From: Escherichia phage LF82-1
Sequence record: PV648359
Length of the DNA: 64,000 nt
Strand: one strand, 5' to 3'
The notes beneath the pieces were generated by a model. The model ran no database searches. It saw only the letters and a list, made by a program, of their open reading frames with translations, and was not told where the DNA came from. This document shows positions 31,302-32,751 of the stretch, piece by piece; position 1 is the stretch's first letter, and the number at the start of each line of letters is the position of its first letter. Position numbers and translations under genes: made by a program.

Positions 31302-31850
31302 TTAACGAGCCCATTTGATGATTTCTGTAATCAAACCATTACGTTCGCTTGCATTAAATCCTATAACTTTGTTAGCACCATCATGATTAAGTAATTGATA
31401 CGTTTGGATTTTGTTATGAATTGCAAACTCTTCAAAATGTGAAATGACTGTATTAAAACCGAATGAAGACAAAGTAATAAGGTCGTCTTCAAAACTTTCA
31501 GTCATTTCGTTACGTGTTAAAATAATTGTGAACACATCATGGTTTTGGCAAAGACGAACATAATCCTGCTCATAAACATCAAGAACAGAGTCCGCATCTT
31601 GTCGAATACGTCCATAAACCCAGTTACTAATATATCCACGGTCTAACAGATAAATCTTAGTAGGGTCTAAATAATTCAACATCGTTTCGAAACAGCCAAC
31701 TTCATTTCTAGACTTAACATCGAAACGTCCATCAACTGTTCGTTTAGGGAAATCAATCTTTACATATCTTTCACTAATTTCCATTATGTCATTAATGAAA
31801 GTTGTTTTACCAGCATTATCCGGGCCATCTACTAAAATAATTTTAGCCAT
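31302..31850 (-). CDS. P-loop nucleotide/nucleoside kinase-like protein
   Basis: 182 aa; Walker A LVDGPDNAGKTT at N-terminus, size and layout of small (d)NMP kinases. Confidence 0.5.
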   Translation of the reverse strand: MAKIILVDGPDNAGKTTFINDIMEISERYVKIDFPKRTVDGRFDVKSRNEVGCFETMLNYLDPTKIYLLDRGYISNWVYGRIRQDADSVLDVYEQDYVRLCQNHDVFTIILTRNEMTESFEDDLITLSSFGFNTVISHFEEFAIHNKIQTYQLLNHDGANKVIGFNASERNGLITEIIKWAR

Positions 31851-31851
31851 T

Positions 31852-32751
31852 TTATTCCTCGATTACGACATCTTCGTATTTAGGTATATTATACGGTGAA
31901 GAAATTAAAGCATTAAAGTAGATGAACTCACCAAGACCTGGATGGAATACTTCTTCAGGATTTTCGAAATATTGAATCTTCGGACGTCCTTTAAGAATTT
32001 GATAGTACTCAGTTTTAGTTGGATTAAAAATTCGAATCAGCGCTTCTTCAGGATACTTATTTCTGTCGAAACTATTATTTGGATCAGTTATATAAAGCGG
32101 TTGACCTAATTGAATTGCGCATTCAACCACTTGTTCAAAACGATAGCATGGGTCACTAATTCGAAATGGATGAAAAATACCATCTAGATGAATAGGAGCC
32201 AAATCACCTACAAGACGCTGCATGACGGAAGGACGTATAACTTTCTGCGTTACGATAATCTTATTACCATCTGCACCTGCGTTAACCAGCACTTCTTTTT
32301 GACGTTCATTCAACACAGTAGTTTGAAGTGAACGATTAACAGACAACATGTCGGTTTTTAAGAATTCATCAATATAAAAACGTGGTTTATTAGGGTCTGC
32401 AGTGATATTGAAATTGAATTCTACGTCAAAAGCGCCATCATATCCAGTGATATCTGTGATTAGAAAATCACAATCATAATAAGCAATTAATGAATCAACC
32501 ACAAATTCATTTTCAGACCAGAAATATTTACGAGTGTTATACGCGTTATCTTTATACCATAATGGAACAAACTTAAATTCTGGGAAAAGACGTTCACATT
32601 CTTTAATATCAGATGCATTACGTGGATATGTAATCACATCACCTGGATTAGCACGGTGCAAATGAAGTTGGAAGTTGCCATCCTTAAGGATAGCATACTG
32701 TCCAGTTTCATAAGACCGCATACTCAAGATAGGTACGCGGAAAATAGCCAT
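31852..32751 (-). CDS. hypothetical protein (occupies beta-glucosyltransferase position)
   Basis: 299 aa; 1-nt gap to kinase ORF and stop overlaps gene 42 start; no recognisable motif. Confidence 0.5.
   Translation of the reverse strand: MAIFRVPILSMRSYETGQYAILKDGNFQLHLHRANPGDVITYPRNASDIKECERLFPEFKFVPLWYKDNAYNTRKYFWSENEFVVDSLIAYYDCDFLITDITGYDGAFDVEFNFNITADPNKPRFYIDEFLKTDMLSVNRSLQTTVLNERQKEVLVNAGADGNKIIVTQKVIRPSVMQRLVGDLAPIHLDGIFHPFRISDPCYRFEQVVECAIQLGQPLYITDPNNSFDRNKYPEEALIRIFNPTKTEYYQILKGRPKIQYFENPEEVFHPGLGEFIYFNALISSPYNIPKYEDVVIEE

Follow-up and report, generated by a model that had tools for sequence, protein, structure and literature searches.

A predicted glycosyltransferase and a thymidylate kinase-like protein encoded behind a 5-hydroxy-dCMP synthase homolog in Escherichia phage LF82-1: probable parts of an RB69-like arabinosyl-5-hydroxycytosine cassette

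In Escherichia phage LF82-1, two adjacent open reading frames (ORFs) on the minus strand, encoding proteins of 299 amino acids (aa) (31852..32751) and 182 aa (31302..31850), directly follow the gene of a thymidylate-synthase homolog in a stretch of 64,000 nucleotides (nt) (sequence record PV648359), the whole of which is hereafter called the window. We consider it likely that this ORF pair and the synthase together make up the base-modifying core of an RB69-like arabinosyl-5-hydroxycytosine cassette, in which the 182-aa protein would be the kinase for the modified deoxynucleoside monophosphate (dNMP) and the 299-aa protein the first transferase acting on DNA. An earlier, sequence-only reading of the window had placed both ORFs at exactly these positions and had proposed that they may encode further modification enzymes, for example a kinase for the modified dNMP and an additional transferase, a proposal that gains support from the predicted folds, the cassette context and the co-occurrence of the genes. 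As predictions these roles are already published, since Lee et al. (Nucleic Acids Research 2026, PMC13326640) tabulate RB69 gp46:47 as 'arabinosyltransferase 1' and RB69 gp45 as 'nucleotide kinase', the latter in the table only, without substrate or discussion. The present analysis thus reads correctly a cassette that was known before and is not a discovery; what it adds is the co-occurrence of transferase and kinase, the existence of bare synthase-transferase-kinase triads, and the acidity of the transferase family (isoelectric point (pI) about 5).

The thymidylate-synthase homolog (238 aa, 32751..33467, minus strand) is near-identical to PDB entries 9iqc, 9ir2 and 9iqu (E 2.4e-161), and its stretch HMRSQNCAVVMQLD holds the substitutions D169N and N177D, that is, an Asn and an Asp at what we take to be positions 169 and 177 of E. 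coli ThyA. D169N is diagnostic for 5-hydroxy-dCMP synthase activity (dCMP, deoxycytidine monophosphate), and the orthologous enzymes RB69 gp48 and DLP3 gp80 convert dCMP into 5-hydroxy-dCMP using O2 and flavin (Lee et al., PMC13326640). RB69 DNA carries beta-D-Araf-(1-3)-alpha-D-Araf (Araf, arabinofuranose), ether-linked to 5-hydroxycytosine (5hoC) and not to hydroxymethylcytosine (PMC13326640). The sequence-only reading had called this neighbour gene 42; near-identity to 9iqc together with D169N/N177D rules out a dCMP hydroxymethylase in favour of a predicted flavin/O2-dependent 5-hydroxy-dCMP synthase, so that the base chemistry is other than was assumed and the phage should carry arabinosyl-5-hydroxycytosine instead of a hydroxymethylcytosine derivative. 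The labels dCMP hydroxymethylase and thymidylate synthase persist for the synthase homolog in many public records.

Synthase homolog, 299-aa transferase and 182-aa kinase form a single three-gene unit of which the ORF pair represents the last two genes. The TAA stop codon of the synthase gene shares one base with the ATG of the 299-aa gene (TAATG, in the coding-strand context GACTAATGG), and the kinase ATG lies one base past the 299-aa stop codon, with a GAGGA Shine-Dalgarno sequence 5 nt before the ATG (GAGGAATAAAATG). Because of this overlap, and of the one-base gap with its Shine-Dalgarno sequence, the translational coupling that had been proposed is well supported. The accompanying statement that the pair ends at the start of gene 42 is right in plus-strand coordinates and wrong in the sense of transcription, where the stop codon of the 'gene 42' homolog marks the beginning of the 299-aa gene. 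The pair does occupy the segA/beta-gt slot of T4, as had been suggested, the order here being synthase homolog - 299 aa - 182 aa - uvsX and that of T4 being 43 - imm.1 - imm - 42 - beta-gt - segA - uvsX.

Both ORFs are regarded as genuine genes and not as chance ORFs, because they recur in many phage records (tblastn) and because their profile alignments, with sequences down to about 36-45% identity, retain 34 (299-aa protein) and 37 (182-aa protein) invariant residues. The region is 100% nucleotide-identical to Escherichia phage LF82-2 and LF82-series relatives, and many other Mosigvirus (RB69-like) genomes are 98-99% identical over it; on this identity the window is assigned to Mosigvirus. 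Public records give the 299-aa gene as hypothetical, and for the 182-aa gene they have either that label or 'thymidylate kinase'. A homing endonuclease of the segA-like GIY-YIG type was considered for either ORF and rejected, as neither has a nuclease match in Pfam or PHROG and the folds are those of a kinase and of a GT-B enzyme.

The 299-aa protein has PHROG 3891 (function unannotated; E 1.1e-155) as its sole PHROG match and is 98-100% identical to its Mosigvirus orthologs. In tblastn it is 46% identical to proteins of Acinetobacter DLP1-like phages and 47.5% identical to TH1_063 of phage Thanatos, which is its ortholog and is encoded at the same genomic position. Judged by these matches, it belongs to the phage 5hoC 'arabinosyltransferase 1' family (RB69 gp46:47 / DLP3 gp79 / PHROG 3891). 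Its gene adjoins the D169N-type synthase gene, and the SIS, NTP-transferase/kinase and HAD genes upstream represent a cluster for UDP-arabinose synthesis (UDP, uridine diphosphate). The gene is intact here, whereas the reference genome of RB69 shows it as two ORFs, a split put down by Lee et al. to a sequencing error (PMC13326640).

A database search returned 138 relatives of the 299-aa protein, and an alignment of 46 sequences gave the 34 invariant residues mentioned above, including S10-M-R-S13, K23-D-G-N26, R74, D128, R197, D200, K246 and H270-P-G272. The AlphaFold model is confident (predicted local distance difference test (pLDDT) 94.9, predicted template modelling score (pTM) 0.89) and has a GT-B fold, with two Rossmann-like domains and an inter-domain cleft. 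GT4-type retaining enzymes are its top structural matches by two methods; Foldseek ranks MshA (3c4q) first, followed by UDP-N-acetylglucosamine (UDP-GlcNAc) 2-epimerases, which have this fold in common and bind UDP-sugars. The same structural matches were reported for RB69 gp46:47 by Lee et al. (PMC13326640), whose argument for a first transferase is that Thanatos, whose DNA is mono-arabinosylated, owns only this transferase type. The alpha linkage reported for the base-proximal arabinose is compatible with a retaining-type fold. From the predicted fold and the context, the 299-aa protein is predicted to be this first (base-proximal, alpha) arabinosyltransferase, transferring arabinofuranose from UDP-arabinofuranose (UDP-Araf) to the 5-hydroxyl of 5hoC. 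With T4 beta-glucosyltransferase (GT63) it has neither sequence similarity nor closest-fold similarity. In a scan of bacteria and archaea, with one representative genome for each species, the transferase gave a single match, on a 167-kb phage-like contig, and by this search the family is phage-restricted.

The 182-aa protein, the ortholog of RB69 gp45 and DLP3 gp78, matches PHROG 761 'thymidylate kinase' (E 5.7e-45). Its fold is that of the nucleoside monophosphate kinases and lies nearest to the thymidylate kinases (TMKs), genuine TMKs being the top structural matches; together with the P-loop motif, this bears out the small Walker-A kinase of the sequence-only reading. The profile and structure searches and the comparison with the RB69-like interval that it had put forward thus yielded a TMK-like kinase and a GT-B protein, orthologous to gp45 and gp46:47. 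The protein fails the curated TIGR00041 cut-off (16.3 bits vs 83.25) and has no Pfam Thymidylate_kin match at E <= 1, the other collections giving only sub-threshold P-loop and TMK matches. We place it as a distant, separate branch of the thymidylate kinases (PF02223 / TIGR00041).

In an alignment of 23 homologs, the residues G9-P-D11-N-A-G14-K15-T16-T, F34-P-K-R37, D70-R71-G-Y...S75..V-Y79 and R113 are invariant or nearly so, and in the kinase profile the P-loop and the FPxR motif align to the vaccinia TMK. In TMKs, the Asp of the P-loop contacts the 3'-hydroxyl of the deoxyribose and the DR motif contacts the phosphates. The presence of both therefore points to a pyrimidine dNMP as substrate, and the protein is best described as a TMK-like P-loop dNMP kinase. 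The T4 gp1-type dNMP kinase (1dek) is neither its nearest fold nor its nearest sequence relative.

The kinase might not be specific for the modified base, and might be either an ordinary deoxythymidine monophosphate (dTMP) kinase that raises the supply of deoxythymidine triphosphate (dTTP), or a kinase acting on DNA or on a sugar, like the 5-hydroxymethyluracil (5-hmU) DNA kinases known from the hypermodification of thymidine. The plain public annotation as 'thymidylate kinase' and the genuine TMKs among the top structural matches point in this direction. We nevertheless judge it very unlikely: the genome set of the kinase is essentially that of the 5hoC transferase (343 versus 348 phage records in tblastn, with nearly equal genus distributions), the homologous region of T4 (L002) lacks the kinase, and the TIGR00041 score lies far under the cut-off for dTMP kinases. 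As to a DNA or sugar kinase, phosphorylation of the 5-hydroxyl would be expected to block, and not to aid, glycosylation from a UDP-sugar.

Separately, 58 IMG/VR loci around relatives of the transferase were fetched and the neighbouring genes scored with profiles. The kinase is present in all 44 loci that have a core-family transferase and enough flanking sequence, usually in the order synthase - transferase - kinase; Dhakavirus, Marfa-like and Proteus phages have the order HAD - kinase - (U32) - synthase - transferase. Distant metagenomic phages (L033-L046, L005) carry bare synthase - transferase - kinase triads with no arabinose-synthesis genes within 5 kb, and locus L004 has the same triad with an NTK-like gene about 2 kb upstream. 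The downstream ORFs are homologs of the kinase (hhalign E 4e-18 and 6e-22). As these triads occur without sugar-synthesis genes, the kinase belongs in the base branch of the pathway and not in the sugar branch. At the most divergent loci, a small adjacent P-loop ORF with a TMK-like EGxDRxGK motif was found in 9 of 11, with an hhalign probability of only 26-70%, which is suggestive only of an extension of the kinase family to these loci. In L005, a metagenomic phage contig of 122 kb, a Flavodoxin_2 gene (NAD(P)H:flavin/quinone reductase-like; 4739..5293, plus strand) lies directly 5' of the triad; such a gene would fit a supply of reduced flavin to the hydroxylase.

The favoured pathway would probably be the logic of T4 carried over to 5-hydroxycytosine. 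The thymidylate-synthase homolog would hydroxylate dCMP to 5-hydroxy-dCMP (5hodCMP), as demonstrated by others for its orthologs, the 182-aa TMK-like enzyme would phosphorylate the modified pyrimidine dNMP to the diphosphate, and the host nucleoside diphosphate kinase and the phage polymerase would then place 5hoC in the DNA. After incorporation, the 299-aa GT-B enzyme would move the first alpha-arabinofuranose from UDP-Araf onto the 5-hydroxyl, and a 366-aa transferase (10559..11659) would add the second sugar. The supply of UDP-Araf itself would fall to three enzymes encoded just upstream, a SIS isomerase, a bifunctional kinase/uridylyltransferase and a HAD phosphatase.

Several observations weigh against this assignment. 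At the level of sequence, nothing links the 299-aa transferase to any family of glycosyltransferases: the ORF and 46 homologs have no Pfam match, including Glycos_transf_1 and Glyco_trans_4, nothing meaningful was found for the ORF in NCBIfam or by phmmer or profile hmmsearch against PDB, and the profile finds no PDB glycosyltransferase. Moreover, the GT4 motif EX7E is not evident by eye, only H270-P-G...E275 being conserved in the expected region. Given the absence of a family-model match and of an evident EX7E, the protein is a fold-level relative of GT4 and not a family member, and, the sequence-family searches being empty, its designation as a glycosyltransferase rests on predicted fold and context; the published roles of both RB69 orthologs were likewise assigned by fold only. 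The protein is also acidic (pI 5.05, net charge -11; family median pI 5.14), whereas T4 beta-glucosyltransferase is basic (pI 9.05). When the DLP3 transferases were singly purified and incubated with 5hoC DNA and UDP-Araf or UDP-arabinopyranose (UDP-Arap), no arabinosylation was seen (Lee et al., PMC13326640), and another report (PMC12838424) describes a different activity for the Thanatos ortholog TH1_063. On the side of the kinase, RB69 gp159, a T4 gp1-type dNMP kinase, converts 5hodCMP to the diphosphate 5hodCDP (PMC13326640), which makes a second 5hodCMP kinase look redundant; yet this extra kinase was never lost in the 44 informative loci.

Part of these observations would be accommodated by pre-replicative glycosylation, in which the 299-aa enzyme arabinosylates free 5-hydroxy-dCMP, the TMK-like kinase has its special substrate in the bulky arabinosyl-5-O-dCMP that the gp1-type kinase is unable to handle, the polymerase uses the glycosylated deoxycytidine triphosphate (dCTP), and only later sugars are put on DNA. 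The constant pairing of transferase and kinase in spite of a gp1-type kinase active on 5hodCMP speaks for such a route, as do the negative assays of the single DLP3 transferases and the inability of Lee et al. to tell a first sugar on the mononucleotide from a first sugar on DNA (PMC13326640). It is in line, too, with the acidity of the transferase family, unlike the DNA-binding beta-glucosyltransferase of T4, and with a gene order and coupling that follow the proposed reactions from synthase to transferase to kinase. Conversely, all phage DNA glycosylation characterised to date is post-replicative (the T4 paradigm), and adjacency is no proof, since T4 gene 42 adjoins beta-gt although beta-glucosyltransferase acts on DNA. 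Nor is the gene order universal, Dhakavirus and Marfa-like phages having kinase-synthase-transferase, and there are many trivial ways in which an in-vitro assay can come out negative. The pI is weak evidence as well, since the 366-aa transferase has a pI of 6.3 and its relatives in DLP3 act on DNA. Overall we hold pre-replicative glycosylation by these two enzymes to be unlikely. If true, it would explain why phages with a gp1-type kinase always keep a second kinase, and it would to our knowledge be the first known pathway of pre-replicative DNA glycosylation.

The activity described for TH1_063 would make the 299-aa protein a UDP-pentose pyrophosphorylase that produces the activated sugar. 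A mass peak of UDP-xylose was obtained from uridine triphosphate (UTP), xylose-1-phosphate and purified TH1_063 (PMC12838424), and TH1_063 is the ortholog at the same position with the 47.5% identity given above. This activity is highly improbable for the 299-aa protein. Its predicted fold is GT-B, whereas this reaction is catalysed by nucleotidyltransferases, which have another fold, and a canonical NTP_transferase domain is present in the adjacent 561-aa protein, for whose HY126 ortholog AfhE pyrophosphorylase activity has been reported (PMC13326640). Within 5 kb, moreover, the bare triads offer no further transferase candidate. The claim is based on a single LC-MS product (LC-MS, mass spectrometry coupled to liquid chromatography) without kinetics, and a check for contaminating host enzymes is not mentioned in the accessible part of the source (PMC12838424). 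Post-incorporation transfer of arabinose by the 299-aa protein, after phosphorylation of the modified dNMP by the 182-aa kinase, therefore remains the reading that we favour.

The second transferase of this pathway is encoded 20 kb away, by the 366-aa ORF at 10559..11659 (minus strand), a glycosyltransferase of the RB69 gp3 type. It matches PDB 9iqz/9ir0 with E 2.7e-249, being essentially identical to the crystallised 'phage HY126 glycosyltransferase' (9iqz; 9ir0 with UDP), and lies between ORFs of 737 aa (8040..10253) and 605 aa (11702..13519). It has no Pfam match, and no similarity to the 299-aa protein can be detected in its sequence. Identification of 9iqz with the 299-aa protein was considered and rejected, as 9iqz matches the 366-aa ORF. 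At four Acinetobacter phage loci (L026, L027, L031, L049) the kinase is followed by two tandem transferases of this second type, an arrangement in agreement with DLP3, for which tri-arabinosylated DNA and the pair gp76/gp77 have been described.

The remainder of the cassette lies upstream of the synthase on the minus strand and corresponds to the RB69 gp45-gp55 cluster described in PMC13326640, from which the following three roles are taken. A 133-aa HAD-like protein (34963..35364; PHROG 1238, E 3e-43) would be the phosphatase (RB69 gp51 / AfhF analog), and a 561-aa nucleotidyltransferase and sugar kinase (35349..37034; RB69 gp52:53 / AfhE analog) would make UDP-arabinofuranose. The latter matches Pfam NTP_transferase (E 8.5e-10) and, weakly and below threshold, the kinase families Fructosamin_kin (E 0.0034) and APH (E 0.034). 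A 211-aa SIS-domain protein (37216..37851; Pfam SIS, E 9e-11; RB69 gp55 analog) would act as arabinose-5-phosphate isomerase. Two small ORFs of conserved position in the cassette, encoding 79 aa (33510..33749, minus strand) and 47 aa (37076..37219, minus strand), have no family match.

The cassette further includes a 386-aa protein of the peptidase-U32 family (33746..34906, minus strand; RB69 gp50 ortholog; Pfam PF01136, E 7e-11), the end of whose gene overlaps the start of the 79-aa ORF. Its 10 Cys residues that are invariant in 22 homologs include a C-terminal CX4CX3CX2C motif. RlhA, a member of the same family, introduces 5-hydroxycytidine into E. coli 23S rRNA in an iron-sulphur (Fe-S)- and prephenate-dependent manner, prephenate being the proposed hydroxyl donor in place of O2 (PMC5727448). 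Four distant viral loci have a U32 gene beside a transferase-like gene with no synthase homolog detectable within 5 kb (loci cited for this observation: L052, L054, L056, L058, L061). Within the same distance, U32 genes occur in the survey sample in phages of facultative anaerobes and are absent from the six Acinetobacter and Pseudomonas phage loci; Dhakavirus, also without U32, forms an exception. A possible role of the U32 protein is that of an oxygen-independent cytosine 5-hydroxylase, as a backup for the O2/flavin-dependent synthase. Lee et al. (PMC13326640) label it 'sugar or heterocycle reductase'.

As to expression signals, a T4-type middle (MotA) promoter motif, GCTT-N13-TATAAT, is found at 33487..33509 (minus strand), 20 nt 5' of the synthase ATG, and a second middle-promoter motif at 31888..31911 (minus strand), within the 3' end of the transferase gene and 38 nt 5' of the kinase ATG. 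Neither is more than a match to the consensus; in the related phage SA79RD the two sites carry the same annotation. Window-wide, a search with the pattern GCTT-N13-15-TATAAT gave 9 matches versus 0.86 expected, 7 of them on the minus strand, where nearly all larger ORFs of the window are encoded; further matches lie, for example, at 4652, 22613, 44034, 54562 and 60411 (minus strand). A scan for sigma-70 promoters found no enrichment (11 promoter-like sites versus 11.1 expected). A short hairpin read from the sequence, GGCTC-GTTAA-GAGCC (31297..31311, minus strand), spans the kinase stop codon and is possibly a weak terminator closing the three-gene unit. It is annotated as a rho-independent terminator in SA79RD; our terminator scan returned 0 intrinsic terminators and did not pick it up.

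Phage DNA that contains arabinosyl-5-hydroxycytosine is protected against restriction enzymes, against the Brig1 glycosylase and against type I CRISPR-Cas, and the modification is widespread in T4-like phages considered for therapy. The transferase and the kinase represent the least characterised steps of the pathway, and the co-occurrence survey narrows the question of their roles, the two genes being found together at every informative core-family locus, also where sugar-synthesis genes are missing.

Compared with known systems, the 299-aa protein shows no difference of substance from RB69 gp46:47, DLP3 gp79 and Thanatos TH1_063, for which the transferase function is predicted as well, and the 182-aa protein is no different from the RB69 member of the 'nucleotide kinases' RB69 gp45, DLP3 gp78 and RL38J1 gp214. 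With T4 beta-glucosyltransferase (and segA) the pair shares the slot between gene 42 and uvsX, beside a gene of the thymidylate-synthase family, and the transferase would share the logic of a UDP-sugar-dependent GT-B enzyme that decorates the C5 hydroxyl of cytosine. The GT4-type retaining GT-B enzymes (sucrose-phosphate synthase 6kih, BshA, MshA, PimA, WaaG), UDP- or NDP-sugar-dependent (NDP, nucleoside diphosphate) relatives, have the architecture of two Rossmann domains in common with the 299-aa protein, which differs from them in being about 60-100 residues shorter, in lacking both a Glycos_transf_1/Glyco_trans_4 match and an evident EX7E motif, and in its predicted nucleobase acceptor. 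T4 gp1 is likewise a P-loop kinase of a phage and supplies DNA synthesis with a modified dCMP, as the 182-aa protein is predicted to do; the RB69 ortholog of gp1 phosphorylates 5hodCMP. TMKs such as those of vaccinia (2v54) and S. tokodaii (2plr) resemble the 182-aa protein in fold, in the P-loop GxDxxGKT with its conserved Asp, in FPxR and in a DR(Y/H)-type motif followed by S..(V/A)Y; the 182-aa protein differs in being only 8-19% identical to them, below the family cut-offs and shorter, and in being strictly tied to the 5hoC module instead of to dTTP synthesis.

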